Source: a phage
Sequence record: PZ379074.1
DNA: 64,000 bases
Reading direction: 5' to 3' (one strand)
The position numbers and the translations under genes were made by a program. Positions within the stretch are counted from its first letter, which is position 1, and each line of letters starts with the position of its first letter. Shown here piece by piece: positions 1 to 28,230 of the stretch. The notes below the pieces were generated by a model. That model was not told the origin of the DNA. It was given only the letters and a program-made list of their open reading frames with translations, and ran no database searches.

Positions 1-93
1 AAGAAATACACATTAATCATTTCCCTTGTCATCATCCTGGGGCTATTATATGTATTGGATATGGCATATTATTTGGCAGGGGTGAGTGGATGA
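1..93 (+). CDS. partial CDS, 3' end only (gene starts upstream of window); hydrophobic C-terminal segment
   Basis: Frame 1 open from base 1 to TGA at 91-93, encoding ...LIISLVIILGLLYVLDMAYYLAGVSG; stop overlaps next ATG (ATGA). Confidence 0.3.
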   Translation, partial: KKYTLIISLVIILGLLYVLDMAYYLAGVSG

Positions 94-5931: not shown

Positions 5932-6311
5932 GAATGAAGCGTTGCCCTTACTGCCACGATGTAATGCACCTTCCACACGAAGAGTTTGTGCAGCACATGA
6001 CTAACTGTGATAAGAATCCTAATAGCGAAAGCCAACTTGAAGAAAGAATGTTCTTGGTGTCATTCAAAGCTTCTGCTTATGAAGTGCAACATTCTTACGG
6101 CGCACCAAGTACGATTTACTGTCCAACAACATTGAGAAGCGACATCGACTCAATTCAGCTTGCGGCCTGGATTAACGTTAAGGAAGGAATCACGCCGCAC
6201 TTTATTGCGCGCATCCAATCTCAGATTCTACAAATCAAGCGCGAATACAACCGTGACATAACTGAAGTGAAGGTGCTGTCTATCACTCCTATGAATAAGG
6301 AGTTGCCGTGA
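5928..6311 (+). CDS. hypothetical protein with N-terminal Cys/His cluster (127 aa)
   Basis: ATGA overlap; CPYCHDVMH...HMTNC zinc-finger-like cluster. Confidence 0.5.
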   Translation: MRMKRCPYCHDVMHLPHEEFVQHMTNCDKNPNSESQLEERMFLVSFKASAYEVQHSYGAPSTIYCPTTLRSDIDSIQLAAWINVKEGITPHFIARIQSQILQIKREYNRDITEVKVLSITPMNKELP

Positions 6312-6568
6312 ACAAGGGTCCGATGACTAAGTTGGCCGTTGCCGCGCGGAAGCTTCGACAAGCCGTTAATGGGTCGCGGCCCGTGGTGTTAACACTCGAC
6401 GACGCAAAGGCACTGGTAGAGCTACTCGACGAGCACAACCGACGCAAGAATCTGGAGAACACATTACGCTGGCGCGTTACTCCGAAAGGGCGGGAGAGCG
6501 AAAAGAAAGCTTACTTGCGGCGTAAACTAAGGTCGGTCGGCCTTCACGAAGAGGCGAAGAATATTTAA
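6308..6568 (+). CDS. hypothetical basic protein (86 aa)
   Basis: GTG start overlapping upstream stop (alternative ATG at 6323); followed by terminator-like hairpin. Confidence 0.45.
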   Translation: MNKGPMTKLAVAARKLRQAVNGSRPVVLTLDDAKALVELLDEHNRRKNLENTLRWRVTPKGRESEKKAYLRRKLRSVGLHEEAKNI

Positions 6569-7761: not shown

Positions 7762-8267
7762 AAATCGAACAACTCGAAGCAGTATTGGAAATGGCTGTAA
7801 AGGCAGGCGCAATCAAAAGCTATCGTCGCGAGAAGTCAGATAGCGATAAGGTGTTTTGTCGCAACTTCTATATCGTTGGCAACCTTAATGACCACTACAC
7901 CATAGAGTGGTATATCAATATCATGACCCTTAAGTCGCGCACCATGGAGCTTTGGTGTGATGACATTTGTCTTTCTCATAGTCATCCGTGCTATGACGTT
8001 GCGCTTGGATTCTTTTATAAAAGCAACCAACCAATCGCACACATCGGTGAGAGGCATGAGCACTTGAAGGAGAAGCCAATGGCGAGTGACGGCTGGATTG
8101 ATTGGGATGGTGGAGACTTGAATCCAGTCCCAGGTAAGAAGGTGCTTTACGTGCTGCGCGACGGCGCTACAGCAACAAAGCCGATTGCATCAGATGAATT
8201 GCGCTGGGAGAAGATTGACGATGCTTATGCAGCCGACATCATCGCTTATCGGGTCGTGGAGGAATAA
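7758..8267 (+). CDS. hypothetical protein (169 aa) with shared C-terminal NPVPGK...IIAYRVV module
   Basis: ATGA overlap; C-terminal ~55 aa homologous to C-terminus of 9152..9571 product. Confidence 0.55.
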   Translation: MKIEQLEAVLEMAVKAGAIKSYRREKSDSDKVFCRNFYIVGNLNDHYTIEWYINIMTLKSRTMELWCDDICLSHSHPCYDVALGFFYKSNQPIAHIGERHEHLKEKPMASDGWIDWDGGDLNPVPGKKVLYVLRDGATATKPIASDELRWEKIDDAYAADIIAYRVVEE

Positions 8268-8608
8268 TGGAAGAGCAAGAAGGCCGTGAGCTAACGTTCG
8301 ACGAGCAAATGCAAGAGCTTCAGCGCACATCGCCGCTGCGCGGTAAGGTTGTTGACATCGAAGCGAGCGAATCCAACCTCACCCAGTGGCGGCTTAAGTG
8401 CACCAGCACAAGCAAGGATATGTTAAGCTTCAAAGTCGGTCAGACTTATTTGCTTTATGAGGCAAAAGGACTTATTATTGATGGAAAGCAAATTGTCTTT
8501 ACTTTTGTCAACGGCATGAGATGGTTTGTGAAGCGTGATGTCGAGGGCCGTGACATGTTTGTCGCAGGCTTTCCAGAAACAAGATTCCAATTGGAGAAGG
8601 TTAAATGA
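8267..8608 (+). CDS. hypothetical protein (113 aa); FKVGxTY paralog family
   Basis: Shares FKVGQTYLLY motif with 6647..6943 product. Confidence 0.5.
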   Translation: MEEQEGRELTFDEQMQELQRTSPLRGKVVDIEASESNLTQWRLKCTSTSKDMLSFKVGQTYLLYEAKGLIIDGKQIVFTFVNGMRWFVKRDVEGRDMFVAGFPETRFQLEKVK

Positions 8609-10800: not shown

Positions 10801-10939
10801 ACGCACCACGGTCCGTTATCCATTCAGCACTATGATTTGTGTACGTTTATAGCCATAATGAACATCAATCTGCACTTGAATATAATGTCCATCCATTGTA
10901 TAATTCACACTATTAATTTGCACTATGGGATTTTGCACT

Positions 10940-11413
10940 ATGAGTCAAGATTATGTAGCGATGCCTGAAGACTTTGAAGACCCGCGATTTGCAGAGCACA
11001 ATCAGGCTTTATTCGATGAGTTCATTGACCTTGTTATTCAGGGCCATGACATGCGCGCAGCTTTTGCACTAGTATTTGGAATGGAAGTTGCAACGGATAA
11101 CTACACTGGCCAGCGAATCCTTTGCGCGCAACGCAATCCATACTACAAGATGCGCTTCAAAAAGCGTATGGAAGAGATGCCACTCAAGGATTTGTGGAGC
11201 GTAAAAGGTGCAATTCACAATTTGGTCAAGCTTGTGCGTGATCCAGAAGTCGCGGCGTCAGCCAAACTTAATGCTATTCGTGAACTGAATATCATCTACG
11301 GCATCACGATGATTGATGAAAACGGCAATAGTAAAATGGGCCGTTCCATGGACGATTTCTACAAGGATTTTGGAGAGGCGGCCAAAGAAGGTGAGCAATT
11401 CTCCCGCCACTAG
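10940..11413 (+). CDS. hypothetical protein (157 aa); speculative small-terminase/DNA-binding candidate
   Basis: ORF flanked on both sides by the ATTTGCACTAT array; alternative start ATG 10925; no motif recognised. Confidence 0.5.
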   Translation: MSQDYVAMPEDFEDPRFAEHNQALFDEFIDLVIQGHDMRAAFALVFGMEVATDNYTGQRILCAQRNPYYKMRFKKRMEEMPLKDLWSVKGAIHNLVKLVRDPEVAASAKLNAIRELNIIYGITMIDENGNSKMGRSMDDFYKDFGEAAKEGEQFSRH

Positions 11414-11841: not shown

Positions 11842-12468
11842 TTAGATAATCTGGAAGGTGTAGGACTTGTTGCCGAACTCAAAGTTCAAGCGCCCAGCTT
11901 CCTTAAGCTTCATGCGGAAGCGAATGTGTTTGCTATCCGGCAAGCCCAGCGCGGCGAACGCTACGCGGACCGATTTGAACTCGCCTACACCCTCGACCAT
12001 GACACCGTTACGGGTGAGACGCTTTTGCGCCACTTCCTTATTATCCCAGCTTTTTGCAATACCTTCGCTATTCGAACGGCGATGGGAAGGAGTTCCATTT
12101 TGCACTACGCAATTTGCACTATCGTTTAAACCGCTCTTAACGAAGGCTTCATATTCTTCGTCGGTCATCGCGTCGAGTTCTTCCTGGGTCGGCTCAGCCT
12201 TTTTAACGACCGCACGCGCCTTATGCGTTTTTACATCGCTGGACACTTCCTCGCGCGGCTTCGCGTCGGGAATGGGCGATTCGTTGGACGGCTCATCGAG
12301 CGCGTTTAAGGACTCGATTAACGCGATTACGCGAGTCTCGGCGGTCCGGCGGTCCGCGAATTTCTTAATCGGCTTCGAACCGGAATTTGCATTATAAAAT
12401 GCAACGAGGTCGGCGGTCTTAGTTGCGATAACGTCGCCGCTAGTAGAAAAGCGATTTAAGCTAACCAT
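11842..12468 (-). CDS. hypothetical protein (208 aa); member of TTATTATG-start module
   Basis: Same RBS context AGGAGTTTATTATGG as 12549..12863; 3' third overlaps the ATTTGCACTAT repeats. Confidence 0.45.
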   Translation of the reverse strand: MVSLNRFSTSGDVIATKTADLVAFYNANSGSKPIKKFADRRTAETRVIALIESLNALDEPSNESPIPDAKPREEVSSDVKTHKARAVVKKAEPTQEELDAMTDEEYEAFVKSGLNDSANCVVQNGTPSHRRSNSEGIAKSWDNKEVAQKRLTRNGVMVEGVGEFKSVRVAFAALGLPDSKHIRFRMKLKEAGRLNFEFGNKSYTFQII

Positions 12469-12548
12469 AATAAACTCCTATTTGTTAGGGCGCTAGGCGC
12501 GAAAGAATTTTATTAAAGCGCCGCGCACGACGCTCTAAAAATCCTCTC

Positions 12549-12863
12549 TTACTCTTCGTCGTCTTCGATTAATTCGAGGGCGAAGGCGTAAGCTTTGCTA
12601 TCGTAATTAACTAAAACGGCGAGTTCGAACTCGTTAATAAACGCCGTTTTACCGCATAAATTTAATTCCGCATCGACTTCGAAGAATCCGTTTTCGTCGC
12701 GCTCTAAGCGAGAAGCAGCGAGTTGCTCGATTACCGTCGCGTCGTTAATTTCTTCGCCTAAGCGAACGCCGGAGAATTTAGCGAGAATTTCGCCGTAAGT
12801 AAGCGTAACGCCCTGGACTTCGGCGGTTGCGTTTTCGAGGGTAAAGCGGGTAACGATAGCCAT
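12549..12863 (-). CDS. small highly acidic protein (104 aa)
   Basis: Preceded by sigma70-like promoter, conserved 5'UTR hairpin and AGGAGTTTATTATG start context; ends ...LELIEDDEE. Confidence 0.6.
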   Translation of the reverse strand: MAIVTRFTLENATAEVQGVTLTYGEILAKFSGVRLGEEINDATVIEQLAASRLERDENGFFEVDAELNLCGKTAFINEFELAVLVNYDSKAYAFALELIEDDEE

Positions 12864-12931
12864 AATAAACTCCTAGTTGGGAGAGGCGTTAACGACCTAT
12901 TCGTTAACTCATCCCGTCCCGATATGAGTAC

Positions 12932-12959
12932 ATTATAATATAGTGTAGAAAAAAGTAAA
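12932..12959 (-). promoter_or_regulatory. sigma70-like promoter (TTTACT-16-TATAAT) for 12863<-12549
   Basis: Reverse complement reads cTTTACT(16 nt)TATAAT; whole cassette near-identical to 13403-13430. Confidence 0.55.
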
Positions 12960-13003
12960 GCACTTTTTCGATAAAAATGCGATAAATTATTTTATCTTTT
13001 TTC

Positions 13004-13031
13004 TTTACTTCTTCGTACACTCGCGTATACT
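13004..13031 (+). promoter_or_regulatory. sigma70-like promoter (TTTACT-16-TATACT) for 13088..13390
   Basis: cTTTACTtcttcgtacactcgcgTATACT, back-to-back with divergent promoter at 12932-12959. Confidence 0.55.
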
Positions 13032-13087
13032 TGTTTATATCGAGACGGGCGATGTCCCTTTCTTCTACTAGCATCGGGAGCTTTATT

Positions 13088-13390
13088 ATGACTACTTTAA
13101 TCTCTTCCATCCTTACTTACGACGAAGACCGCTTAACCGTTCGCTCTCTTATCGCCGCCGTTAACGCGGAACTAGAATCTAGCGCCATTAAGGTCCGCGC
13201 GGTCGCCTTCATCGGCCTTTCCTTCGACGATATGAAGTATGCCGAACGTAGCGCTATCCGCTTCGCGAAGACCGACGACGAAGCCGTTACCCTTATCGAG
13301 ACGGTTACGCCGCGCGACGAAGCGTTAATTATCGTCGAGTATATCGACGTAGAAGGCGATAAGGCTTATAAATATTTTATCGCAGAATAA
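13088..13390 (+). CDS. small acidic protein (100 aa)
   Basis: Start set at ATG 13088 within GGGAGCTTTATTATG context (track ORF 13031..13390 starts earlier). Confidence 0.55.
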   Translation: MTTLISSILTYDEDRLTVRSLIAAVNAELESSAIKVRAVAFIGLSFDDMKYAERSAIRFAKTDDEAVTLIETVTPRDEALIIVEYIDVEGDKAYKYFIAE

Positions 13391-13402
13391 CGAAAAAGTG
13401 CT

Positions 13403-13430
13403 TTACTTCTTCGTACACTAAGACTATAAT
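13403..13430 (+). promoter_or_regulatory. sigma70-like promoter (TTTACT-16-TATAAT) for 13498..13788
   Basis: gtgcTTTACTtcttcgtacactaagacTATAATg; followed by hairpin GGTAGCGA-atagg-TCGCTACC and AGGAGATTATTATG. Confidence 0.55.
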
Positions 13431-13497
13431 GTTTTATATCGAGAGGGGATGAGGTAGCGAATAGGTCGCTACCCTCCCGACCAACTAGGAGATTATT

Positions 13498-13788
13498 ATG
13501 ATTACTTTAGCCGCTATCCGTAACGCTCGCGCCGAAACTTCCGAAAACTCTAACGTATTTGGCGAAAAACTTAAAAACGTTTATCTCTTTAACGTAGATG
13601 CGACTATCGAGGAGCTTCATAGTCCTATCGATTTTAGCGAATTTACGGAACTCGAAGAGGAAGATATTTCTACTTTCCGCGTTACTATCGAAGGCAAGGT
13701 TTATTTTGCTACGGAGTTCGGCGGCGAATATCTCGCGGTATCCGAAGGCGAAGGCCGTTACTCTTTCTTTAAAATCGTCTCCTTATAA
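13498..13788 (+). CDS. small acidic protein (96 aa)
   Basis: Own promoter cassette; followed by terminator. Confidence 0.6.
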   Translation: MITLAAIRNARAETSENSNVFGEKLKNVYLFNVDATIEELHSPIDFSEFTELEEEDISTFRVTIEGKVYFATEFGGEYLAVSEGEGRYSFFKIVSL

Positions 13789-13807
13789 TACCCTTCCGTT
13801 ACTAATA

Positions 13808-13833
13808 GGCCGCGCTTAGTCGCGGCTTTTCTT
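13808..13833 (+). terminator. rho-independent terminator
   Basis: GCCGCG-cttagt-CGCGGC followed by TTTTCTT, 20 nt after stop of 13498..13788. Confidence 0.55.
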
Positions 13834-14096
13834 CGTCCCTATCCCGATGCGCGTCTACGCGAAAACTCCTTTATCCTTCCCTTCGTCGTCGCATAATCTT
13901 CTTCGAGATGCTCCTTAGTTCGCATAACAGGTATTACGTTAAATGGAGAACATCGCGTAAGTCCTTGTTTTATATAGACACCTATATCGGACCGTTAGGG
14001 CGGGTCGCGTAAGTCGTTGTTTTATAAAGGCGCAAAACTTTCCCTTCGTTCCGAACTAAAACGAGGAATATGCCGACCCTTCGTCCGAAAATAGTA

Positions 14097-14470
14097 TGCA
14101 TGCGAAATTACATGCATCTAGAATAATCCCCACCGATATTATCCTACACGCAATCATTCGCTTTCGAATCATTATGCTTCATATTATTATGCATCGAATC
14201 ATTCTCTTTCGAATTGTAACGCTGGAAACTGTAACGGCGATTGATTATTGCGTTCGTGTGGTTTTTAGGGCATGGGTCTTTTGGTGCGTTTTGCTACTTG
14301 ATGAAATTTGCGGTACACTAATCAAAATACGACACATTTGGTCCACTAACTTTTCAAAGAAAAAGTCCTAGACAGTACCGTACTATTTTGCACCCACAGG
14401 AAATTTGCAGTACACTCCTGCGCGGCAGGCAAAATAAAGGGCCGCACTAAGCGACCCACTAAGCGACCCA
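14097..14470. repeat. non-coding repeat-rich region (short direct and inverted repeats)
   Basis: ATGCATG...CATGCAT inverted repeat near 14097; AATCATTC(G/T)CTTTCGAAT direct repeats near 14149 and 14201; (G/C)AGTACACT motifs near 14303 and 14400; tandem CACTAAGCGACCCA x2 at about 14445-14472. Confidence 0.5.
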
Positions 14471-14499
14471 CGATTCACGGTTAAAGCAACATCCACCCA

Positions 14500-14880
14500 C
14501 TATTCACTCTTATGGGCATCACCAAAGCCATCCGCAATCTGGCTGATCAATGATTCAATGGACACAGTTTTACCAATTGATCGAGCGGTAATAGCAAGCA
14601 TATTATCAATCAAACCACGATTGACTGCATATGTTCCAGGTTTTGACTCATCTTCAGAACAACCAAAAAGCTGGTCGCGCAGACTTTCAAGAGAACGCTC
14701 AATATTTTCCAACTTCTCTTCTAAATCGGATTGGCGACGTAAAACCCATGTCAAGTCACGGTTGCCAACTTCCAATCCATCAGAATAGCAAGGTGGAGCG
14801 TCAATTTTGATGCTGGAACCAAAAGCAATGCCGCTGCCTTTAGTATGTGTGTGGCTCATAGAATCATTTTTATTTGACAT
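14500..14880 (-). CDS. hypothetical protein (126 aa)
   Basis: Start set at internal ATG (MSNKND...) with AAAGG RBS; track ORF extends to 14946. Confidence 0.45.
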   Translation of the reverse strand: MSNKNDSMSHTHTKGSGIAFGSSIKIDAPPCYSDGLEVGNRDLTWVLRRQSDLEEKLENIERSLESLRDQLFGCSEDESKPGTYAVNRGLIDNMLAITARSIGKTVSIESLISQIADGFGDAHKSE

Positions 14881-14977
14881 ATCATTACCTTTAATATTTG
14901 GGTGATTAATAATAACTATAATAAAGCCGCATGGCGCGCCATTCAAATCGGTTTATTAATTGTAACGATTGGATTCA

Positions 14978-15172
14978 TCAATCGATACCAACTGAGCCGA
15001 TGTGCTGAAAGAATTCTGAATAAACTTCCTTCCAGTACTTGCGCGCAGCTTTCTGGGCTTGCCCTTTGCGCTTGTAGCTTTTACCTTGGAAAATGAAACG
15101 GTCGTTTGCTGCGTTATACTCCACCACACCTTCCAGCCATTGTAAGAATGCTACTGATTCATTTTTATTCAT
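14978..15172 (-). CDS. hypothetical protein (64 aa)
   Basis: ORF in minus-strand block. Confidence 0.4.
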   Translation of the reverse strand: MNKNESVAFLQWLEGVVEYNAANDRFIFQGKSYKRKGQAQKAARKYWKEVYSEFFQHIGSVGID

Positions 15173-15179
15173 GTTAACC

Positions 15180-15575
15180 TCAATATTTTAATAAGAAAGT
15201 ACCCAACCAACTTTCCTCAATCTCGCGGCCAGTAGCCACACGGTCGGTCTTGGCTATGGGTCTGGATTCGCCGCAGGGCAATCCGTCTTGTAGTTGTGTA
15301 CTATTGCCAATTCTCACCAGAACCTTTCCATCAGGGTCGATATAAGCGCGACAACCCATGATTTCGAGTCGTTGTAGACACTGGCGAATCGTTTTCAGCT
15401 TCTCACCGGACCGGATAGAGCGCGGTCGCGACCGCTGACCGTTTTTATTCACTGTACGCTTGAAAACCGGAATATCATTGGTGCGTTGCGGCTTGGGTCG
15501 GTAATAAGCCTCTTCGCCAGGAGTTGCACCTGGTGTCAGTTCGCGCTTAAGCGCCTTTTCAATATCAATGATCAT
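15180..15575 (-). CDS. hypothetical basic protein (131 aa)
   Basis: Start set at internal ATG (MIIDIEK...); track ORF extends to 15647 with Cys-rich leader. Confidence 0.4.
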   Translation of the reverse strand: MIIDIEKALKRELTPGATPGEEAYYRPKPQRTNDIPVFKRTVNKNGQRSRPRSIRSGEKLKTIRQCLQRLEIMGCRAYIDPDGKVLVRIGNSTQLQDGLPCGESRPIAKTDRVATGREIEESWLGTFLLKY

Positions 15576-15668
15576 AATTATGCTGCAGCAGCGTGAATGA
15601 TTGCATAAACAATTCCTAACATGGCGACAACACAAACCGTGCCCCAAAATGCAAAACGTCGTGATTCT

Positions 15669-15956
15669 TTATCCATTGGACCCTTCTCCACTGTTGATAT
15701 TATCCGAAATCAAAGTCGGAATTTCATCTTGAGTCCTTACCTTGTAGTGCGAAGGCATCTTACTTTCCAACAATGCCTGTTCAGCTTCGCCTTTTGTTTC
15801 AAACAAAGGAATGCACCAATCAACTGCATTTCCTTGCTCGTCGCCATTAACAGCTTTCAAGAATACAAGACGCTTGTCTGCAGGGTCGATGCCGCAAATT
15901 AAGTATTTAGGCAGCGCCTTTGCTTTTTGGGCCTTATCAATATCTTCAAATTTCAT
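15669..15956 (-). CDS. hypothetical protein (95 aa)
   Basis: ORF immediately downstream of tail fiber gene, same strand. Confidence 0.45.
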   Translation of the reverse strand: MKFEDIDKAQKAKALPKYLICGIDPADKRLVFLKAVNGDEQGNAVDWCIPLFETKGEAEQALLESKMPSHYKVRTQDEIPTLISDNINSGEGSNG

Positions 15957-16037
15957 AAATCACCTCACTTGTTAACGTATAATGAGTATAACTTAATATC
16001 GCATAAAGTAAAGGCGCTTTTCAGCGCCTTGAGTGAA

Positions 16038-18401
16038 TTATTTCGCTGCTTTTAGCGCGGCTATTTCTGCCTCTAGTGACTCGACCTTTTTCATCAACTC
16101 CTGCACCACGTGCATCGTATCCAAAAGCATAGGTGTGGTGTCAAGTTGCTTTTGCTCAACTTCGACACCTTCACTTGGATAGAATTTAATCGTTTTGACA
16201 TACAACGGGTCAATAGTCTCTGCCTGTTGAGCAATAATCCCTCTTCTCACCCTTTCCTTTTCATCATTGTTGTAGATGAAAGTTACATACTCCAGCAATG
16301 AAAGGTTGCTCCATGCTTTTTCTACCGTTCCTGGTTGTATGTCATGCTTCAAATTCTCATCAGAGATGGCATTCTTCTGAAGAGTGAAGAAACTGTCAGA
16401 GCCTGGAACGGATACTGAAAAGAATACGTCCTCTACGTTAGGCTGGATTTGCATCTTTGTTTGATACTTTGCATCATCATCACCAGAAGCAATCCACGTA
16501 GCTTGCGCAAAACTTCCATTGTTGTTGTGAATCATGCCATGGTGAACAGTAGTTGCGTATCCTGTATTAACAGATTGACTACCACTGATAAGGCTGTTGA
16601 AGCCATAGTTCTGACCAAGACCCTGACGAACCATCGAGAAGGTGCCTGACTTTGATCCTGTTTCAGCCCACGACATTAACGTTCCGTACCGTGCCGCAAA
16701 TCGGTCAGACCATAATAGACCGTCATCAGTCAAGCTGATGTCTTTTTCTTTACCTGCAGTGACGTTTTTTACTGATAACTGGGTGGAATATGACCCACCC
16801 ATCGTTGCTGATGTGTAAACCGTTCCTTGCGCTTCGATGGCAGTTCCAATCTTGTATTCAACGCTTACTTTCCCTGATTCAACTCTCGTTCCGTCTATCG
16901 GTCTGGTGGCGTCACCGTTGATAACACTCCAAGACGTTTTCGCGGCAACAAATCCGCCCGATGCACGAATCACCCAAACGCCGATGAAGTTGCGCGGCAA
17001 AATGTTATCCGAAACGCCATATCTGCCATAAGTGCCATTCGAATAACTTGCCCTAAAGTTCAAGGTGTTTAAACGGCCTGGTGTTGCACCAGTACCGCCT
17101 GGTATCGTTTCACCAGCCCCTTGAGGGTATAAGTCATTGTTTGTGTAAAATGCGCCTCTTACGGCTGTACCGAAAATTTGCGCGTAAGTCCCTTGAGACA
17201 CGCCTGCCGCAGAACCTGCAATGTCTGGCGCAGCCGCTTCATAAATTGTCCCGTCATTGGAAGATGTTCCGCCATCACCTCGCCCAAAAAGCTCCTTGAT
17301 TGATCCTGTCTGAACACCGTTTCTGTCCGGCACACGGAATGTAGTTGTGCCATTACCCAAAGAATATTTACCACGCTTTTGGGCGTCAGCAAGCCAGTCA
17401 GCATCCGCAATAGGTGATAACATTTGCGCGTATGCCCAAAGTTCAGGCCAGTCAGCGCGATTCAGCAATTGTCCGTCTGCAACGACTTCATACGGTTGAA
17501 TATATGCACGACTGTCTCGCAAGTGGAAGTCGCCGACGCCATAGTTCATAACACCGTTCATGCTTGGGCCAACGGTGCCTGTGTTCACTAAGTTCTCAAC
17601 CCAACGCTTGGTTGCAGCATCATAATCGTTTACCGGATCACCAGCAAGCGGAGTCGACCCTTGTGGACGAATATTCAACCAAGCTTGAGCATTGTCTGCT
17701 GATCCTGTGCCGCCCATGGAAGTTGGGACGATGCTTTGATCAGCAACAGGGCCAAATCCAAATGCATCTTTCATTCCTTGAATGGTTGTCTGCCCCGTTC
17801 CGCCATTTACAATTGGAATCGTGCTTTGCGTACTATACATCTGCACCCAATCCGACCAGGATGATGAGCCAGCATTGTATAGCCTTTGGTATATGGCGTT
17901 GATCCAATAAGGCGTATATCTTTGGACGCAACTTTCTCCTGCGACGCCAGTCTTGTAGACTTCAAGAATGCCAGCTTGTGAAACTGGATAGTTCAAAGCC
18001 GATGATGCGCCAGCATTTGCTGATTGATGATATTGGCCAAACCATGAACCAGTCAAAGCATTGAGATTTATTCCGTTAGGAATCTCCCCAAAGTTTCGGA
18101 CGGTGCCCGTCAAAGTCGCGGCAGTAGTTCGAATGGAAAGCATATCGCCAGCCGCCCATGCACGCGCTGCAGTTCCTTCTTGTGCACGCTGCACGGTCAG
18201 AACGTTTCCAACCACGGCTGTTACTGTGACGATTTCGAATTGGAGGCCTGTTGCAGCGTCGACGATTGTCGCCACTACACGCTCGTTTGCGCCCAAGGTC
18301 GGAAAGCCCGACCCTGAGCGAATTGTGATGGTGGTGTCTGAAGTCGTGGTTGGCTGAGCCAGTGCGACCTCAAAGTTGTTTTTGAATATTAGCCTTGGCA
18401 T
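16038..18401 (-). CDS. tail fiber / tailspike with C-terminal intramolecular chaperone (peptidase S74-like) domain
   Basis: 787 aa, Gly/Ser/Thr/Asn-rich body; C-terminus has SDENLK (Ser...Lys, S74-like) and coiled-coil tail. Confidence 0.7.
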   Translation of the reverse strand: MPRLIFKNNFEVALAQPTTTSDTTITIRSGSGFPTLGANERVVATIVDAATGLQFEIVTVTAVVGNVLTVQRAQEGTAARAWAAGDMLSIRTTAATLTGTVRNFGEIPNGINLNALTGSWFGQYHQSANAGASSALNYPVSQAGILEVYKTGVAGESCVQRYTPYWINAIYQRLYNAGSSSWSDWVQMYSTQSTIPIVNGGTGQTTIQGMKDAFGFGPVADQSIVPTSMGGTGSADNAQAWLNIRPQGSTPLAGDPVNDYDAATKRWVENLVNTGTVGPSMNGVMNYGVGDFHLRDSRAYIQPYEVVADGQLLNRADWPELWAYAQMLSPIADADWLADAQKRGKYSLGNGTTTFRVPDRNGVQTGSIKELFGRGDGGTSSNDGTIYEAAAPDIAGSAAGVSQGTYAQIFGTAVRGAFYTNNDLYPQGAGETIPGGTGATPGRLNTLNFRASYSNGTYGRYGVSDNILPRNFIGVWVIRASGGFVAAKTSWSVINGDATRPIDGTRVESGKVSVEYKIGTAIEAQGTVYTSATMGGSYSTQLSVKNVTAGKEKDISLTDDGLLWSDRFAARYGTLMSWAETGSKSGTFSMVRQGLGQNYGFNSLISGSQSVNTGYATTVHHGMIHNNNGSFAQATWIASGDDDAKYQTKMQIQPNVEDVFFSVSVPGSDSFFTLQKNAISDENLKHDIQPGTVEKAWSNLSLLEYVTFIYNNDEKERVRRGIIAQQAETIDPLYVKTIKFYPSEGVEVEQKQLDTTPMLLDTMHVVQELMKKVESLEAEIAALKAAK

Positions 18402-18439
18402 TTTACGGTCCTCGTTTTGTCGACAACCGTATTATAACC

Positions 18440-18781
18440 TTAATTTCTTTTGAGAGGAATATGACGGTTGCTGTCATTATTTGGTTTAATAATGAGCATA
18501 AAAACGATTAGAAAGATGATGGCTGATATACTTAATTCAATCAGCGCGGCTTGAGATATGGATTGATCTTCATGATACTGCTTTTGCATTTCTGCTTTCT
18601 TCTGAGCGCAAACTTCAGGTGATATATAATCGCCTTTTGAGTTTCCATAATAAATCTCGCCATTCTCAGAAATAAGTCTGCCGCAAATATCAGTATCGGC
18701 CTTTGCGCTTGACATCATAATAACGGTGCCGATGATAGCAGCGATAGTCCAGATTAACAGTTGTGATAAAGTGTTGTTCAT
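18440..18781 (-). CDS. small membrane protein (113 aa): N-terminal signal/anchor plus C-terminal TM
   Basis: Start set at internal ATG (MNNTLSQLLIWTIAAIIGTVIMM...); C-terminal hydrophobic segment. Confidence 0.45.
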   Translation of the reverse strand: MNNTLSQLLIWTIAAIIGTVIMMSSAKADTDICGRLISENGEIYYGNSKGDYISPEVCAQKKAEMQKQYHEDQSISQAALIELSISAIIFLIVFMLIIKPNNDSNRHIPLKRN

Positions 18782-18977
18782 GATAACCTCTTTAAATTCC
18801 CTTCCCATTTCGGGAAGGGCGATAATTATTTTACGCGAAAGAATAGGCGCGTGCCACACAGCGAGTCCCAACGGCCTTCGCCATCCCATACCGACCCAAC
18901 GCCAGCGGTGATGACACCAGCAGAATTGGCGGCATTGGCCCAGGCAAGACGTTTCAACTTCCAACTGCACCAACGAT

Positions 18978-19229
18978 TCACAGTTCGTCTCCAGATTGCA
19001 AAATCAGACCTGTATAGAGGATTGCCAGAGCTAAAGGCGCACCGCTGCCAGCCTCTCTATTCTCTTTAATTTGAAGCGTGTCCTTAAGGAATTGCAATTG
19101 AACGTTAAATTCATTTTCAATCCCAAGCACCACGGCCAATTCTTTTACAGAATCTGCATATGCCTTATCTAGCACTTCTTTTGGTACTTTTAAAGTTAAT
19201 TCACTTCCCATTTTCTTTCCACTCCACAA
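18978..19229 (-). CDS. hypothetical protein (83 aa)
   Basis: ORF in minus-strand block. Confidence 0.4.
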   Translation of the reverse strand: MWSGKKMGSELTLKVPKEVLDKAYADSVKELAVVLGIENEFNVQLQFLKDTLQIKENREAGSGAPLALAILYTGLILQSGDEL

Positions 19230-19422
19230 ATGTGCTGCCGCTTGTTTCTCTGTTTAGCAGGTATCTGCCGCGCATTCCATGAAGGCTGAATTCAACCGTC
19301 GATGGATTAGATTTTGAAAGCCACATCGCTTGACCGTCGAATGGACCGCCTACGCATGTATATTTCGCTTTTGGCTCACTCCTTTTGGGACGTTTTGCCC
19401 GCTCTTTGATTGATAGTCTCAT
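19201..19422 (-). CDS. hypothetical basic protein (73 aa)
   Basis: ORF in minus-strand block. Confidence 0.4.
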   Translation of the reverse strand: MRLSIKERAKRPKRSEPKAKYTCVGGPFDGQAMWLSKSNPSTVEFSLHGMRGRYLLNRETSGSTFVEWKENGK

Positions 19423-19637
19423 CAGTCTTCACCTTGAGATTCCAGACAAGTAAGGACAAGCCACGTCATCGGAAGAATCAAAACCAGAGAAATGAGGGAC
19501 CAGATAGACCAGCACAAGATGACAGACTTGAATGTGTGAACGTCGCCAAACGCAGCAGTAAAACAGAATCCCATTACAAATGCAATAGCCGTGGAATGGT
19601 TGTCTATGGCTTTGATGGCGCGGTCGATGAGTTTCAT
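19422..19637 (-). CDS. small two-TM membrane protein (71 aa); holin-like topology
   Basis: Two hydrophobic segments and charged C-terminus (ESQGED); first gene of leftward block. Confidence 0.4.
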   Translation of the reverse strand: MKLIDRAIKAIDNHSTAIAFVMGFCFTAAFGDVHTFKSVILCWSIWSLISLVLILPMTWLVLTCLESQGED

Positions 19638-19719
19638 ATTACCTCCGGTTTTGAGTTAATATGATTATAACGCAGACTTTCAGAAAGGCAAACTTTTTGT
19701 GAATTTTAATCAAAAAAAT

Positions 19720-19738: not shown

Positions 19739-19815
19739 GAAAAGATCACCCTTTATCCACTACTAAGCTGGAATCATAATTTTACTTGATATAGCTGTCG
19801 CAAGCAAACTATAAT

Positions 19816-21276
19816 ATGAATAAAATATTAACACATAATTGGAAAGTCATGTACCAGTTGAATCCTGCTTTAAGAGAAGTCTGGAAGACGAAGGCGCGAT
19901 ACAAAGTTATATACGGCGGTCGTGCATCTTCCAAATCGCATGATGCCGCTGGTTTTGCTATTTATTTGGCGGCAAACTTTAAATTAAAATTCCTTTGCGT
20001 TCGACAATTCCAGAACAAGATTTCTGAATCAGTATATACGCTATTAAAAGACAAAATAGAAATTTCTGATTTCAAAGACGAGTTCAACTTATTAAAGAAC
20101 TCTATTGAACACAAAAGAACAAAATCTGAATTTTTATTTTACGGTATCGCACGCAACGTTGACGAAATCAAATCAACAGAAGGTGTTGATGTTCTTTGGC
20201 TTGAAGAAGCGCATGCACTGACTGAAGAGCAATGGGACATTATTGAGCCGACAATTCGTAAGGAAGGGTCCGAAATATGGATCATATTTAACCCTGATGA
20301 AGAGGCTGATTTCGTCTACCAGAACTTTGTCATGCGACCGCCGAAAAATGCCATCGTTAAGAAGATTAACTGGCAGGACAATCCATTCTTGTCGCAAACA
20401 ATGCTGGATGTTATCGCTGGCATGTATGAGCGCGACCCGAAAAAGGCAGAACACGTTTATGGCGGAGTGCCGAAGACAGGCGGCGATAAGTCGGTCATCA
20501 ACCGTGCATTCGTCAAAGCCGCGCTAAACCTCCACAAACACCCTACGCTGGGATGGAGCTTGTCAGGGTCTAACCGTATAGGCTTCGACGTGGCGGACGA
20601 CGGCGACGACTTAAACGCCACAGCATTTGTCACAGGCAACGTATTACGTGGCATCAAGACATGGGAAGGTCTGGAAGATGAATTGCTTAAGTCCGCAAGC
20701 GGAGTTTGGAAAGACGCATTGACATTCGGCGCGTCAATTACCTATGACGCCATCGGTGTCGGTGCATTTGCTGGTTCAAAATTTGATGAGCTCAATGAGT
20801 ATGCAATACATGAAAATCCAACATTCCCAAGAATCGAATTTAATGCGTTCAACGCGCAAGGTGCTGTTGATGATCCTGATGACGTTTTCCTTGAGTTACC
20901 ACACGTTGAAATACTCAATAAAGACCATTTCGCAAACATAAAAGCGCAAAAATGGACTGAGATTGCCGAACGATTCAGAAAGACATATGAGTATGCGACA
21001 GGGCAAGCCGCATATCCGACCGATGAGTTGATTTCCATCGACACAGACGGCATTCCAGAACTTGGGATTCCTGCTTGGTCTGCGGAAGAAATTGAGACGT
21101 TTCTTTTTGAGATGTCAGCGCCGCGCAAAGACACGTCTGTTCTTGGTAAGTTCAAAGTTGAATCGAAAAAGGATATGGCAAAGCGTGGAGTTAAATCGCC
21201 TAACAAAGCGGACGCCGCAATCATGGCATTGATGAAACCAATTGTTGCAGCATCCGGCTTCTTCTCTAACCTTTAA
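19816..21276 (+). CDS. terL: terminase large subunit
   Basis: 486 aa; N-terminal ATPase region (GGRASSKSHDAAG; VLWLEEAH); first gene of head module, followed by portal. Confidence 0.75.
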   Translation: MNKILTHNWKVMYQLNPALREVWKTKARYKVIYGGRASSKSHDAAGFAIYLAANFKLKFLCVRQFQNKISESVYTLLKDKIEISDFKDEFNLLKNSIEHKRTKSEFLFYGIARNVDEIKSTEGVDVLWLEEAHALTEEQWDIIEPTIRKEGSEIWIIFNPDEEADFVYQNFVMRPPKNAIVKKINWQDNPFLSQTMLDVIAGMYERDPKKAEHVYGGVPKTGGDKSVINRAFVKAALNLHKHPTLGWSLSGSNRIGFDVADDGDDLNATAFVTGNVLRGIKTWEGLEDELLKSASGVWKDALTFGASITYDAIGVGAFAGSKFDELNEYAIHENPTFPRIEFNAFNAQGAVDDPDDVFLELPHVEILNKDHFANIKAQKWTEIAERFRKTYEYATGQAAYPTDELISIDTDGIPELGIPAWSAEEIETFLFEMSAPRKDTSVLGKFKVESKKDMAKRGVKSPNKADAAIMALMKPIVAASGFFSNL

Positions 21277-21279
21277 CAA

Positions 21280-21519
21280 CTAAAGCATTCCGTGCTGAAG
21301 GTCGAGTTTTCTTGCGGCAAACGACCTGGCACGGAATCGCTTACCCGCCCTTACTGCCTGTCGAATCTTCTTTTGCAAACACTTACGATCAAAATCGTTG
21401 CGGTCGACGGCTTCGAGTAAATCACGACGCAGTGCACCCAGTGTCGACTTTTCGGAGACTTCAACACCCAGCGCGGCTGCAACATCTTTCAAAACATCGA
21501 GTTCGGTTAAAGTTCTCAT
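21280..21519 (-). CDS. hypothetical basic protein (79 aa), opposite strand inside head module
   Basis: Start overlaps stop of 21516..21932. Confidence 0.45.
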   Translation of the reverse strand: MRTLTELDVLKDVAAALGVEVSEKSTLGALRRDLLEAVDRNDFDRKCLQKKIRQAVRAGKRFRARSFAARKLDLQHGML

Positions 21520-21932
21520 TTGATAATCCCTTTGATGTCTGATTCTGCCATAAATATTGGAGTGCCGCCGCCAGGAACAATCGAGCGAGTAACTTTGTCA
21601 AACATATCGTTTTCTTCAACTTGAATACGATAAAATTTATTTTTGGATGAAGATGGGCACAATCCCATAAATTTGCCGATTCCGCGAACGCATTCATCTT
21701 CAAAGTATACTGTTTCACCTTGAATGGAGTCGATATTGTCTACTGGATAGACTTTGCGACCCAACAACCACTCATCCAAAGTCGCCTGCAAGACATTTCG
21801 CGCATCTAAAATCCACGGGTCAATAGTCGCACCTTCGTATCGCGCAGCAGTGGCCTTTGCCAGTTCTTCATATTCGCATACGTTAACGACTTCGCCGTTG
21901 TGTAGGACGACAAATACAATTGTTGTGCTCAT
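21516..21932 (-). CDS. hypothetical protein (138 aa), opposite strand inside head module
   Basis: Minus-strand ORF between terminase and portal with its own AT-rich upstream region. Confidence 0.5.
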   Translation of the reverse strand: MSTTIVFVVLHNGEVVNVCEYEELAKATAARYEGATIDPWILDARNVLQATLDEWLLGRKVYPVDNIDSIQGETVYFEDECVRGIGKFMGLCPSSSKNKFYRIQVEENDMFDKVTRSIVPGGGTPIFMAESDIKGIIK

Positions 21933-22094
21933 TTCAATCTCCTTTCGTTTGGTTAACTAAAATATAACTCAAAATGATACAAAAGCAAAATATTTTATGA
22001 ACTATTTATGATCACCATACATATCATTTGCTTACAAACACATGAATATTTATAATATAGATTGATTCCCTTTCACTGTCAGGTGGCGTTAACA

Positions 22095-24470
22095 ATGAAA
22101 ATTCTTGGCATAAAACTCTGGGAGAAGACGCAACCAGAAGCCGAACCAGCGGAGATGCCGCCAGGCGACCCATTGGCACCGTTTGAACGCCTTGAAAGGC
22201 GCGGCAGCGGTCAACGCTGGGAAAAGACTGAAAGCAATCGACCGACCTTTAAAACGGTTGATGACTTCCCTTTATATGAGCCTGATATTAATGGCGATGG
22301 TGTTGCAATCATAAAAGGTCGTTCAGTCGATTCCGCAACAGTATCCAAAAAGGTTATGGATAATGCCTTAAAGAACATCAGTTCAGAAGGGCAAGTCAAC
22401 CCATACACAGTACCTATTCAACTTCAAAACTGGTATTTGTCACAGTCATTCATCGGCTATCAAGCTTGTGCCATCATCGCACAGCATTGGCTGGTGAACA
22501 AGGCGTGTTCCATGGTAGGTCGCGATGCGGTCCGTAAAGGTTGGGAAGTCAAATCCAGTTCTGAGTCAGAATTGTCAGTACAGGCAAGCGAACGCCTAAA
22601 GCAAATTGATAAAGAATTTAATATCAAAGAGCACTTAGTTGAAGCCGAACGATTCAAAAATATTTTTGGTATCCGCGTCATCATATTTGATGTGCGTAGC
22701 GATGACCCAGAATATTACAGCAAGCCTTTTAACATTGATGGTGTGACAAAGGGGTCTTATAAGGGAATCATTCAGGTTGACCCTTATTGGATGATGCCGT
22801 TTCTGACGTCTGAAAACACAGCAGACCCTGCATCACAGCACTTCTATGACCCAGAATATTGGGTAATCAGCGGACAACGTTATCATCGCAGCCACCTCAT
22901 AATCTTGCGCAACGATGAGCCAGCTGATATTCTCAAGCCGACTTATATTTACGGCGGCATTCCTCTGACTCAGCAGATTTATGAACGCATCTATGCCGCT
23001 GAACGTACCGCTAACGAAGCGCCATTGCTGGCGATGTCCAAGCGTACAACCACGCTGCGGACCGACGTTGACAAGGCGATTGCCAATGAGCGGTCTTTTG
23101 CAGAACGTCTGATGATGTGGATCAAGTACCGCGACAACTATGCAGTTAAAGTGCTTGGCCAAAAAGAAGAGATGGACCAGTTTGACATCAACTTGTCAGA
23201 CTTCGACAGCATCATCATGAACCAGTACCAGCTTGTGGCCGCAATCGCAAAAGTTCCGTCGACCAAACTGCTTGGGACTTCGCCAAAAGGCTTTAACGCC
23301 ACTGGTGAATTCGAGATGGTCAGCTATCACGAAGAGTTGGAAACGTGCCAGCAGCATGACCTGACAAAAATTCTCGACCGCCATTACAAAATCCTTCTCA
23401 AATCAGAAGGGGTGGATGTCGATGTTAAGGTTGCATGGGAACCAGTTGGCTCACTTACTGCTACTCAACTTGCAGAAATCAATGATAAGCGAGCCAACAC
23501 TGGCAAAACTCTTATTGATGCTGGCGTCATTTCTCCTGATGAAGAGCGCGACCGCATCAAAGACGACAAAAACAGCGGCTACAACCGTCTGCCGGAAGAC
23601 GCAGCAGAAGAAACCCCAGGGATGTCTCCAGAGAATATGGCATTGCTTGGCAAGTCTGCTGGTGAAGTCCTGCAAGGTAAGGCCGATATTGAACAGGCGA
23701 AAGCTGATGTCGTTAAGATGGGCGGCCAGTTCTACAGTGAAACAGGCATTATGCCAGAGGGTGCCGCGCGTGGTGAGTTGGCGGAAAACCCTGACAAAGC
23801 GCCTGTCGAAATCAACATGGACGATACCGATGATGAATCAAGCCATCAGGTTGGTGTCCTAACGCAGTTGAAAGAAGGGCTGGAGGGTATTGCGGATTAC
23901 TACCTGAAAGAAGGTCAGGATGTGGATTTTGACCCTCAAAAAGATTCACGGTCGGTGCAACCGTCTACCCTTCCAAGCGTTAAAGGACACGTCGTCAACT
24001 TACGCCACAACGTGGGTAAAATGGACGCAGCATCATTACCTAAGATGAAGTTGCACGGAATGATTCTTGGCATTGAGAATCCGCGAAACAGCATTCGTAG
24101 AGGAAACAGCCTTGACGGTGAATGGGCCGTGAAGATGCCGCACCACTACGGATTCATCAAGGGCACCAAGGGCGCAGACGGTGATGAAGTCGACTGCTTT
24201 GTGGGTCCAAATCTGAAGTCGCCGAAAGTCTTTATCGTGAACCAAAACGATAACTACTCTGGCGAGTTTGATGAACACAAGTGTATGCTTGGATTCGATT
24301 CAGCAGAAGAAGCGAAAGAAGCTTATCAAGCATCATTTGGTAACGGTTGGAACGGATTCGACTCAATCCACGAATTAGATGTGAACTCATTCAAGGAGTG
24401 GTTGAAGGGTGATTGCTCTCAAGCATACGGAGCACTCAATAATCCTACTAATTCACCGAAGCAAGGTTGA
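22095..24470 (+). CDS. portal protein (long form with C-terminal extension)
   Basis: About 790 aa; position right after terL and before MuF-like gene; start set at ATG 22095 with GGTGG RBS. Confidence 0.6.
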   Translation: MKILGIKLWEKTQPEAEPAEMPPGDPLAPFERLERRGSGQRWEKTESNRPTFKTVDDFPLYEPDINGDGVAIIKGRSVDSATVSKKVMDNALKNISSEGQVNPYTVPIQLQNWYLSQSFIGYQACAIIAQHWLVNKACSMVGRDAVRKGWEVKSSSESELSVQASERLKQIDKEFNIKEHLVEAERFKNIFGIRVIIFDVRSDDPEYYSKPFNIDGVTKGSYKGIIQVDPYWMMPFLTSENTADPASQHFYDPEYWVISGQRYHRSHLIILRNDEPADILKPTYIYGGIPLTQQIYERIYAAERTANEAPLLAMSKRTTTLRTDVDKAIANERSFAERLMMWIKYRDNYAVKVLGQKEEMDQFDINLSDFDSIIMNQYQLVAAIAKVPSTKLLGTSPKGFNATGEFEMVSYHEELETCQQHDLTKILDRHYKILLKSEGVDVDVKVAWEPVGSLTATQLAEINDKRANTGKTLIDAGVISPDEERDRIKDDKNSGYNRLPEDAAEETPGMSPENMALLGKSAGEVLQGKADIEQAKADVVKMGGQFYSETGIMPEGAARGELAENPDKAPVEINMDDTDDESSHQVGVLTQLKEGLEGIADYYLKEGQDVDFDPQKDSRSVQPSTLPSVKGHVVNLRHNVGKMDAASLPKMKLHGMILGIENPRNSIRRGNSLDGEWAVKMPHHYGFIKGTKGADGDEVDCFVGPNLKSPKVFIVNQNDNYSGEFDEHKCMLGFDSAEEAKEAYQASFGNGWNGFDSIHELDVNSFKEWLKGDCSQAYGALNNPTNSPKQG

Positions 24471-26811: not shown

Positions 26812-28230
26812 ATGCGAATGCAAACGGCACGCGAAATTGACAAAAATGGATTCTTGACGATTGTGGGTTGTCCCATTTCGTCATTTGGCATTTTTGATTA
26901 TTCTGCAGGTCAGGTTGGACTTGATGGTGATCCGAATCGCATCGTAAAAGTTTATCGCCCAGAGTCAGCGGTGAAAGACCCCGAAGCGATAGATTCATTC
27001 AAAAATATCCCTTTCATCGACAATCACGAAATGCTTTCTGGATTCGAAGGTGATGAGGATAACACAGCACCCGAAGAGTATGGCGTTGATGGCGTTCTAA
27101 CTGGCAATGTTTATTATGACAAGCCATGGATGCGCGGCGACCTTAAAGTTTTTAGCCGTCGTCTGAAGAAAGCCATCGATTCTGGAAAGGTTGACTTGTC
27201 TTTGGGCTATGACTGTGAATTCATCATACAGTCTGGAGAGTTTGACGGGCAGCCGTATGAAGTGGTACAGACAACTCTTCGCGGCAACCACATTGCTCTC
27301 GTGGACGTTGGTCGAGTACCAGGTGCACGGGTGCTGGATGGTCGTTGCTTTGACCATCTTTGTTTGACGACTGTAACACCATCCAACGAGGATTTAGACA
27401 TGCCAAAACCGTTAAAAGGTAAAGCGCGTGATAATGCTGTTGAACAGCTGAAATCACTGATCCCTGCGCTCGAACAATTTCTGAATGAAGAGAGCACCGA
27501 AGCTGCTCATCAGGACGAAGTTGAAGTGAAAGCAGAAGAGAAGGATTCAACCGAAGAACGTGAAGAAGTGATGGTTGATCCAGAAGTTAAAGCAGAAGCT
27601 GAAGAGACTCCAGAAGGTGAAGAGAAGTTTGAAGTTGAAACTGAATCTCACGCTGGCGGCGAGCTTCCGCAACTGATCAGCCAAATCGAAGCACTTATTG
27701 CAAAACTGAAAGGTGGCGCGGTAGGTGATGAAGAAGAAGTTGAAGCCGAAGTCAAAGACGAAGAAGTTGAAGTCAAGGCTGAAGATGTATCACCTTGCGA
27801 CAAAGCTGAAGATGTGGTTAGCGGCCTGCAAAACAGCAACGTAAAGGGGGCTTCGGTCGAAAAAGATGACAAACCGACAAAAGCGGCGAAAGCGTCGCCA
27901 GGTCCAGCAAAAGGGGAACACTCAATGGCATCTGATTCAGCAGTTGCTGCTTTCTACGCTGATTCTGCTCGTAAGAATAGCCTCTACCAGCGCCTGTCTA
28001 AAGTTGTTGGTGCCTTTGATCATGCAACTATGGACTCCAAGTCCGTAGCGAAATATGGCGCTAAAAAGTTAGGCTTGAAGTGCGTTGATGGTGCTGAGTT
28101 TGACGTGGTGGATAATTATCTGCGCGGCGTTGAACACGGTCAAAAACAGCGTGTAGTCGCAAAACAAAAGGCCGCTGCGGATTCTGCAGCAACTGACGAA
28201 GCATTTGAAGCTTGGTTGAAAGGGGAATAA
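26812..28230 (+). CDS. prohead protease/scaffolding-like protein (acidic coiled-coil middle region)
   Basis: 472 aa; Glu/Lys/Val-rich acidic repeat region; position between portal/MuF and capsid. Confidence 0.5.
   Translation: MRMQTAREIDKNGFLTIVGCPISSFGIFDYSAGQVGLDGDPNRIVKVYRPESAVKDPEAIDSFKNIPFIDNHEMLSGFEGDEDNTAPEEYGVDGVLTGNVYYDKPWMRGDLKVFSRRLKKAIDSGKVDLSLGYDCEFIIQSGEFDGQPYEVVQTTLRGNHIALVDVGRVPGARVLDGRCFDHLCLTTVTPSNEDLDMPKPLKGKARDNAVEQLKSLIPALEQFLNEESTEAAHQDEVEVKAEEKDSTEEREEVMVDPEVKAEAEETPEGEEKFEVETESHAGGELPQLISQIEALIAKLKGGAVGDEEEVEAEVKDEEVEVKAEDVSPCDKAEDVVSGLQNSNVKGASVEKDDKPTKAAKASPGPAKGEHSMASDSAVAAFYADSARKNSLYQRLSKVVGAFDHATMDSKSVAKYGAKKLGLKCVDGAEFDVVDNYLRGVEHGQKQRVVAKQKAAADSAATDEAFEAWLKGE

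Follow-up and report, generated by a model that had tools for sequence, protein, structure and literature searches.

The 64,000-nucleotide stretch of phage sequence record PZ379074.1 considered here (the "window", in what follows, is that whole stretch) carries two small minus-strand genes, for proteins of 138 and 79 amino acids (AA), between the genes for the large terminase (terL) and the portal protein. The question raised by this locus is whether they were inserted there, as the initial annotation proposed in calling them moron-like, or belong to it by descent, and what they might do. Judging from the 98.6% identity of the pair region to Shigella phage CWP003 and Escherichia phage WFH, the window belongs to Wifcevirus, whose members are E. 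coli and Shigella myoviruses of ~68 kb. The pair is best, and most parsimoniously, read as the reduction of a larger ancestral cassette and not as an insertion; on balance, we favor the view that it is an expressed two-gene operon whose products are not virion components, the minimal remnant of an ancestral leftward cassette that runs across the Pbunavirus, Kylevirus and Wifcevirus myoviruses. There is firm support for vertical conservation of both genes at this locus, for a fixed portal-proximal place of the 138-AA gene and for a sigma70-like promoter in every lineage compared. The genes and their flanks are laid out as follows:

19849-21276 (alternative start 19816), plus strand: flanking gene terL, large terminase (Terminase_3, E 3e-37)
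21274-21282: convergent junction, with the stop codons of the 79-AA gene and terL 3 nt apart
21280-21519, minus strand: 79-AA gene, ATG start
21516-21932, minus strand: 138-AA gene, ATG start; first, portal-proximal gene of the leftward cassette, assigned to the phrog_5124 family
21933-22094: AT-rich divergent intergenic region from the 138-AA gene to portal, GC 0.28
22095-24470 (alternative start 22062), plus strand: flanking portal gene with a C-terminal InPase domain (Phage_portal_3, E 3.5e-88)

The two minus-strand open reading frames (ORFs) between terL and portal, their stop/start overlap and the AT-rich region upstream are all as first described. The overlap is 4 nt, ATGA, which makes it likely that translation of the 79-AA gene is coupled to that of the 138-AA gene upstream of it, and the spacer at 21933-22060 has a GC content of 0.234 as against 0.46 for the window, among the lowest 0.2% of 128-bp windows. 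The head module had also been described as otherwise uniformly plus-strand. This holds from the portal gene onward, but not at terL, where the region 19816-21282 is a single plus-strand gene flanked by two minus-strand blocks; upstream of it, the minus strand is used throughout 11842-19637.

Using tblastn, both proteins were found in 29/29 Wifcevirus records, at the same position and with at least 95% AA identity, and both genes are annotated as hypothetical in all of them; in other phage records, neither protein was detected by tblastn at E < 0.01. The ratio of nonsynonymous to synonymous substitution (dN/dS), determined by the Nei-Gojobori method against two divergent members of the genus, is 0.05 for the 79-AA gene and 0.05-0.12 for the 138-AA gene, as compared with about 0.015 for terL and portal; both genes are under purifying selection, with a constraint weaker than that on the head genes. 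Since they are conserved throughout the genus, are held at these low dN/dS values, have orthologs at 25-66% identity in other lineages and, for the 138-AA protein, give the published reporter signal described below, both ORFs are real genes and not chance ORFs.

Two variant alleles of the 138-AA gene have been seen within the genus. The first, at 6001-6417 of locus L005, comes from E. coli assembly GCA_018093385.1, where a single 68.6-kb contig amounts to a whole Wifcevirus-sized genome; here the 138-AA gene is 81% identical to that of the window at the nucleotide level and 85% at the AA level, while terL, the 79-AA gene and portal show 91-92% and 96-99%. Positive selection on this allele was considered and rejected, since dS is raised too (0.90) and dN/dS is 0.12; these values indicate a gene-sized patch of mosaic recombination, not diversifying selection. 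The second variant, at 8001-8471 of a metagenomic Wifcevirus contig (L004), is a frameshifted gene encoding 156 AA, the C-terminal part of which is unrelated from residue ~98 on; it represents a natural knock-out or else an error of sequencing.

The base composition of the pair is unremarkable, with GC contents of 0.43 (138-AA gene) and 0.50 (79-AA gene) and GC at third codon positions (GC3) of 0.41 and 0.475, compared with a GC3 of 0.45-0.50 for terL and portal; recent acquisition has been rejected on GC, GC3 and distribution. Like the morons described by Juhala, Hendrix and colleagues in the lambdoid phages HK97 and HK022, the pair is an opposite-strand unit with its own predicted promoter (sigma70-like -35 and -10 elements, in 8 aligned lineages), set amid late genes and not required by the particle. 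Unlike them, it has no terminator of its own, is neither variably present nor compositionally distinct, is inherited vertically across genera and belongs to a phage that is not temperate. With every member of the genus carrying it, positional orthologs in related genera, normal GC and no closing terminator, the description "inserted, moron-like" cannot be kept, and neither a moron nor a defense-related insertion should be counted here: for a lytic phage, a small accessory operon of this ordinary kind, its products already on record as hypothetical proteins, is nothing unusual.

A word-index search of 5.8 billion proteins returned only the Wifcevirus copies of both proteins. When the 138-AA profile was run exhaustively with HMMER against 1.84 billion representatives, just four more proteins were added, at 56%, 47%, 41% and 32% identity; the contigs of these uncultured relatives (L014 to L017) reach 72 kb, two being of phage-genome size (68 and 72 kb), and carry terL genes 76-91% identical to that of the window. 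The gp028 of Pantoea phage Kyle is also a member of the family (profile E 1.8e-21; Foldseek 3.7e-8). Wider context searches, in IMG/VR for both families and in the JGI metagenomes for the 138-AA family, gave the Wifcevirus and Kyle loci only. Orthologs of the 79-AA protein are found in the same cassettes, those of L014 (E 2.6e-33), L016 (1.4e-10), Kyle (gp026, 1.4e-8), L017 (6.7e-8) and L015 (3.6e-6). In L014-L017 the 138-AA homolog opens a leftward cassette, divergent from portal, the end of which is convergent with terL; in Kyle, too, gp028 comes first in the leftward direction from portal. The check that the initial annotation had suggested, a synteny comparison looking for variable presence, has thus found the pair at one and the same locus throughout Wifcevirus, in Kyle and in L014-L017, with the 138-AA gene also present in phage 14-1. 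The annotation had further held that universal conservation in relatives, together with a role for the products as virion assembly factors, would speak against it; the conservation is there, while the assembly role is at most a possible reading, taken up below.

Kyle and L014-L017 share with Wifcevirus the orthologs of both proteins, their locus and order, and the architecture of the intergenic promoters. They differ in having 4-7 genes in the cassette, including a DUF2786/DUF7168 protein, a ~100-AA protein and a Trypsin_2 protease, none of which has a counterpart anywhere in the 64-kb window. In four of these five lineages (L014, L015, L016 and Kyle) it is the protease gene that separates the orthologs; L015 has an additional small gene there, and in L017 they are separated by another ORF. 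The ~100-AA protein is likewise found in four of the five cassettes (all except L014), and the DUF2786/DUF7168 protein ends the cassette in 5/5; it also occurs in the cassettes of phages Hera and 14-1. At ~245-260 AA, this DUF2786 + DUF7168 protein is conserved more widely than any other member of the terL-portal cassette (loci L001, L002, L008 and L014-L017), and the Trypsin_2-like protease (~180-200 AA) is the second recurrent member. Neither family of the pair is detectable in Serratia phage Hera or Burkholderia phage Maja. The genes between terL and portal can be compared as follows:

Wifcevirus: 2, minus strand
L014-L017 and Kyle: 4-7, minus strand
Hera: 7 on the minus strand and a single small one on the plus strand
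14-1: 14, minus strand (gp04-gp17)
Maja: 2 small genes, plus strand

No relative with terL abutting portal was found among those compared. The gap between the two genes in this clade is thus an ancestral cassette slot, the content of which varies from 2 to 14 genes. It is read as reduced in Wifcevirus because the closest outgroup, L014, with a terL 91% identical, already has a four-gene cassette, and because the DUF2786/DUF7168 gene, widespread in the clade, is absent from the window. Wifcevirus would then have lost the intervening and distal genes, leaving the two core genes fused as an overlapping pair.

By profile comparison, the 138-AA protein belongs to phrog_5124, a family of unknown function: five of the six members of its own family match that profile (best E 1.9e-5; 2.9e-4 for the protein of the window), and gp17 of phage 14-1 (ORF16, portal-proximal), which is a full-length phrog_5124 protein (E 1.6e-88) and a remote homolog, aligns with the 138-AA family profile with an hhalign probability of 97% (E 6e-11, 26% identity over 118 columns). 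Like the 138-AA gene, gp17 and its Pbunavirus orthologs are small (133 AA) and are encoded by the first leftward gene, divergent from a portal gene that has a sigma70-type promoter; they differ in heading a cassette of 14 genes instead of 2, in having a Pseudomonas host and in the lack of a detectable 79-AA partner, as no homolog of that protein could be found in 14-1. From E. coli phages to Pseudomonas phages, the phrog_5124 gene has stayed next to portal, and this is the sole mildly interesting point about the locus.

What did stand of the proposed autonomy of the pair is that it forms a separate leftward transcription unit, having a promoter-like site of its own in the AT-rich spacer that is conserved across lineages. 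The spacers of eight lineages were aligned, oriented along the direction of cassette transcription, and the elements of the control region in the window are these:

21939-21944, minus strand: ribosome-binding site AAGGAG, 6 nt upstream of the 138-AA ATG; a purine-rich block is kept there in the spacer alignment
21961-21988, minus strand: putative sigma70-type promoter of the pair, with -35 TTGCTT (21988-21983), a 16-nt spacer and -10 TATATT (21966-21961); start site inferred
22017-22027, minus strand: conserved box ATGATATGTAT, between the two promoters and kept between lineages
22028-22056, plus strand: putative sigma70-type promoter of the portal operon, TTGCTT (22028-22033), 17 nt, TATAAT (22051-22056)

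The counterparts of the leftward promoter in the relatives have TTGACT, TTGCTT or TTTACT at -35 and TATAAT, TATAGT, TATATT or GACAAT at -10. The TATAAT of the portal promoter, which stands back to back with that of the pair, is invariant in 8/8 aligned lineages, and in phage 14-1 the orthologous portal site carries a sigma70 promoter annotation. These back-to-back sigma70-like promoters are conserved in the alignment though the cassette proteins are just 25-66% identical. The box ATGATATGTAT was considered as a recurrent operator and rejected, there being no second copy elsewhere in the window. Near-consensus sigma70-like sites (TTGCyT or TTGAnn, 16-18 nt, TATAAT) are also seen at 19786, 22028, 26760, 41122 and 10876 on the plus strand and at 19691 and 21988 on the minus strand, preceding terL, portal, the genes at 26812 and 41151, the small terminase gene (TerS) and both leftward blocks. 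The structural genes of this phage thus seem to have host-type promoters, fitting the sigma70-like promoters that have been mapped in 14-1.

At the other end of the pair, no convincing terminator was found in either direction at its junction with terL, just weak hairpins (~-8 kcal/mol) downstream, inside terL, and an Rfam search of the region gave no family match; a regulatory RNA or terminator at this junction has been rejected on these grounds. Convergent read-through across the junction is likely, as far as can be told from the sequence. In the relatives, the last cassette gene overlaps the 3' end of terL, by 12 nt in L014 and by 4 nt in Kyle, and convergent transcription across this end of terL looks like a conserved feature.

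Published work on a synthetic vB_Eco4M-7 bears directly on the 138-AA protein, which is gp35 (138 AA, unknown) in that phage (PMC11074155). With a C-terminal HiBiT tag on gp35, 336 plaques were obtained, as against 332 for the untagged phage, while tags on the terL, capsid and sheath proteins were lethal, those on terL and capsid giving no plaques. The signals above untagged, obtained by our own subtraction of the published mean differences, were as follows, in relative light units:

ATCC 43888: gp35-HiBiT 3.1e6, tagged portal 1.1e7
Ec134: gp35-HiBiT 3.8e5, tagged portal 1.9e5
Ec135: gp35-HiBiT 2.4e6, tagged portal 1.5e7

As the gp35-HiBiT signal is above that of the untagged phage in three hosts, the 138-AA protein is made during infection, in an amount comparable in order of magnitude to that of portal. 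When preparations of vB_Eco4M-7 and ECML-117 were analyzed by mass spectrometry, 33 and 28 proteins were identified, including the portal and many head and tail proteins (PMC7048862); the products of the pair (gp34 and gp35 of Eco4M-7, gp32 and gp33 of ECML-117) are absent from both sets, though small or low-copy proteins can escape detection.

The two proteins are very different in character. The 138-AA protein is acidic, with an isoelectric point (pI) of 4.7 (4.5-4.8 across the family) and a net charge of about -7. The 79-AA protein is basic (pI 10.3), with an N-terminal part of net charge -2 and an Arg/Lys-rich C-terminal tail of net +9. This charge dipole is kept across its family (N-part -2 to -5, C-part +8 to +10), for which reason the tail is suggested to bind nucleic acid; one Cys (C47) and R63 are also kept in the family alignment. 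For the 138-AA protein, an AlphaFold2 model from a shallow alignment was unusable (pLDDT 51), while the addition of four distant homologs raised the pLDDT to 82 and gave a predicted fold with a small N-terminal alpha/beta domain (residues 1-57) and a C-terminal SH3-like beta-barrel (residues 74-137). The structure prediction that the initial annotation had called for has thus yielded a fold model, but this fold is too widespread to imply a ligand. The modeled barrel resembles the small SH3-like barrels of the Tudor, KOW, Sm/LSm and PsaE families; there is no sequence-level match of the 138-AA protein to any of these, and no Pfam family recurs among its relatives. A CarD_TRCF_RID match (E 0.058) was seen for a single member of the 138-AA family and is treated as chance. 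Searches of BFVD with the model returned the protein itself and Kyle gp028, together with weak T4-type "MotB/transcriptional regulator" matches (E 0.04-0.26, TM ~0.3) that are not counted as evidence. Pfam, PADLOC and PDB sequence searches with both families gave nothing meaningful, and the suggestion of a defense function finds no homology to known defense proteins, five family members having been searched against PADLOC with no match at E ≤ 1.

What the pair does can be proposed only tentatively and with low confidence: its products may bind nucleic acid or protein inside the cell and modulate gene expression in the course of infection. Host RNA polymerase would transcribe the two genes from their own promoter, independently of the rightward portal operon, and with no terminator to stop it, this transcription would continue, antisense, into the 3' end of terL. 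Both products would act within the infected cell and not in the particle, the 79-AA protein binding nucleic acid via its conserved Arg/Lys-rich tail and the acidic 138-AA protein being an adaptor that binds protein or nucleic acid through its predicted Tudor/KOW/Sm-type barrel. The two might jointly modulate host or phage gene expression as part of host takeover, by analogy with gp12 of the equivalent cassette in 14-1, which has been reported to bind the alpha subunit of RNA polymerase (PMC10914365). Several observations weigh against this proposal. The host-takeover gene gp12 shares with the pair its genomic slot and orientation, but has no sequence relationship to either protein, so that the link is positional only. 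Pfam gives no SAP, HeH or Rho_N match for the 79-AA protein, whose N-terminal part resembles a helix-loop-helix on a reading by eye. TTGCyT-17-TATAAT-like sites also precede terL, TerS, portal and other structural genes, and the type of promoter is therefore no reason to count the pair among the early genes; reading expression timing from it was abandoned as uninformative, and in the ONT-cappable-seq study that covers the Pbunavirus cassette the time points were pooled. Neither family is detectable in Myosmarvirus or Bcepfunavirus, so that the cassette core is not shared by the whole of the wider clade. Finally, a function in head assembly or packaging would also be in keeping with strict retention beside portal across a long evolutionary distance.

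The last of these points leads to a serious rival, given the fixed portal-proximal position, although we consider it unlikely: that the two proteins, or the 138-AA protein if not both, are non-virion helpers of head assembly or packaging, acting transiently with portal, terL or the remote TerS as a portal or prohead chaperone or a packaging-initiation adaptor. The 138-AA gene keeps its place beside portal from Wifcevirus to Pbunavirus, where terL is just 63% identical, both families occur solely in this phage clade and at this locus, and the pair has a compact, conserved divergent control region in common with the portal operon. Absence from the virion fits a chaperone as well, terL being missing from the same mass-spectrometry lists, and with TerS 8.4 kb away the packaging genes of the clade are dispersed. 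Yet the pair has diverged at a much higher rate than the head genes (53% and 66% identity in L014, as against 81% for portal and 91% for terL); its cassette partners, namely the trypsin-like protease, the DUF2786/DUF7168 protein and, in 14-1, the RNA-polymerase-binding gp12 and a methyltransferase, are unlike morphogenesis genes; and Myosmarvirus and Bcepfunavirus manage homologous terL and portal genes with no detectable homolog of either protein. The tagging results tell against it too, the C-terminal tag on gp35 leaving plaque yield unchanged when those on terL, capsid and sheath were lethal. A bolder version, which we regard as a long shot, makes the phrog_5124 protein an unrecognized clade-wide factor that controls the back-to-back promoters firing the portal/head operon, or else bridges the remote TerS, terL and portal, joined in Wifcevirus and Kylevirus by the basic 79-AA partner; if true, phrog_5124 would represent a new type of assembly or timing regulator, common to the therapeutic Pbunavirus phages. 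That one of the pair is itself the missing TerS deserves next to no credence and has been rejected: the place next to terL is the usual one for that gene and most Wifcevirus records annotate none, but the plus-strand ORF at 10925-11413 of the window (162 AA) matches the small terminase of Pseudomonas phage E217 (PDB 7UXE, E 6e-34), neither family profile matches any TerS in PDB, and the 138-AA model has no helical oligomerization core.

Accessory functions of two other kinds have been weighed. Counter-defense or superinfection exclusion, exercised by a conserved accessory operon and not by a recent insertion, strikes us as rather improbable. In its favor, the genes have their own promoter, look dispensable, are non-structural and evolve faster than their neighbors; the 138-AA gene has been exchanged as a mosaic patch in L005 (81% nucleotide identity between flanks of 91-92%); its product is acidic, as are many anti-restriction DNA mimics; and considerable resistance of Wifcevirus phages to restriction has been reported in K-12 (PMC11990801). 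However, a net charge of about -7 is far less acidic than that of Ocr- or ArdA-type mimics, and diversifying selection is not indicated by the dN/dS of 0.05-0.12, the dS of 0.90 in the L005 patch pointing to recombination. Nor is there a PADLOC match or similarity to any characterized protein, and the distribution is strictly vertical and locus-bound, as against the patchiness typical of counter-defense genes. A type II toxin-antitoxin-like module is very improbable and has been rejected on synteny in the relatives and on the lack of family matches. Two small genes with a 4-nt overlap, one promoter and oppositely charged products do have that look, but the orthologs are split by other genes in 5/5 non-Wifcevirus lineages, making the adjacency Wifcevirus-specific; in Pbunavirus the 138-AA homolog occurs with no 79-AA partner, and neither Pfam nor PADLOC finds a toxin or antitoxin family.

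Going back to the reading of the pair as a cassette remnant, Wifcevirus offers the minimal form of this cassette in a phage that can be rebuilt synthetically, as has been done for vB_Eco4M-7, and is therefore a convenient system for working out the function of the cassette core. What is learned there would carry over to the Pbunavirus phages used in therapy.

A few features of the neighboring genes may be added. The 162-AA ORF at 10925-11413 is a clear homolog of the E217 small terminase, which places the Wifcevirus TerS ~8.4 kb upstream of terL, with a minus-strand block between them that includes a tail-fiber gene; no TerS annotation was present in the portions of Wifcevirus records inspected, and in E217 this gene is likewise encoded far from terL (PMC9611059). 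The portal protein (22095-24470, plus strand) has its C-terminal InPase domain (PF18823, E 3e-46) at residues ~660-782; the same fusion is seen in L014, L015 and the Wifcevirus contigs L004 and L005, and PHROG matches place the InPase domain also in very large virion-associated proteins of other phages. Upstream of terL, a 73-AA minus-strand ORF at 19201-19422 gives a strong match (E 2e-28) to phrog_12090, of unknown function. The neighboring 76-AA protein, gp32 of vB_Eco4M-7, had high scores in virion mass spectrometry (PMC7048862), and the leftward block just upstream of terL may thus encode a small, unannotated virion-associated protein.

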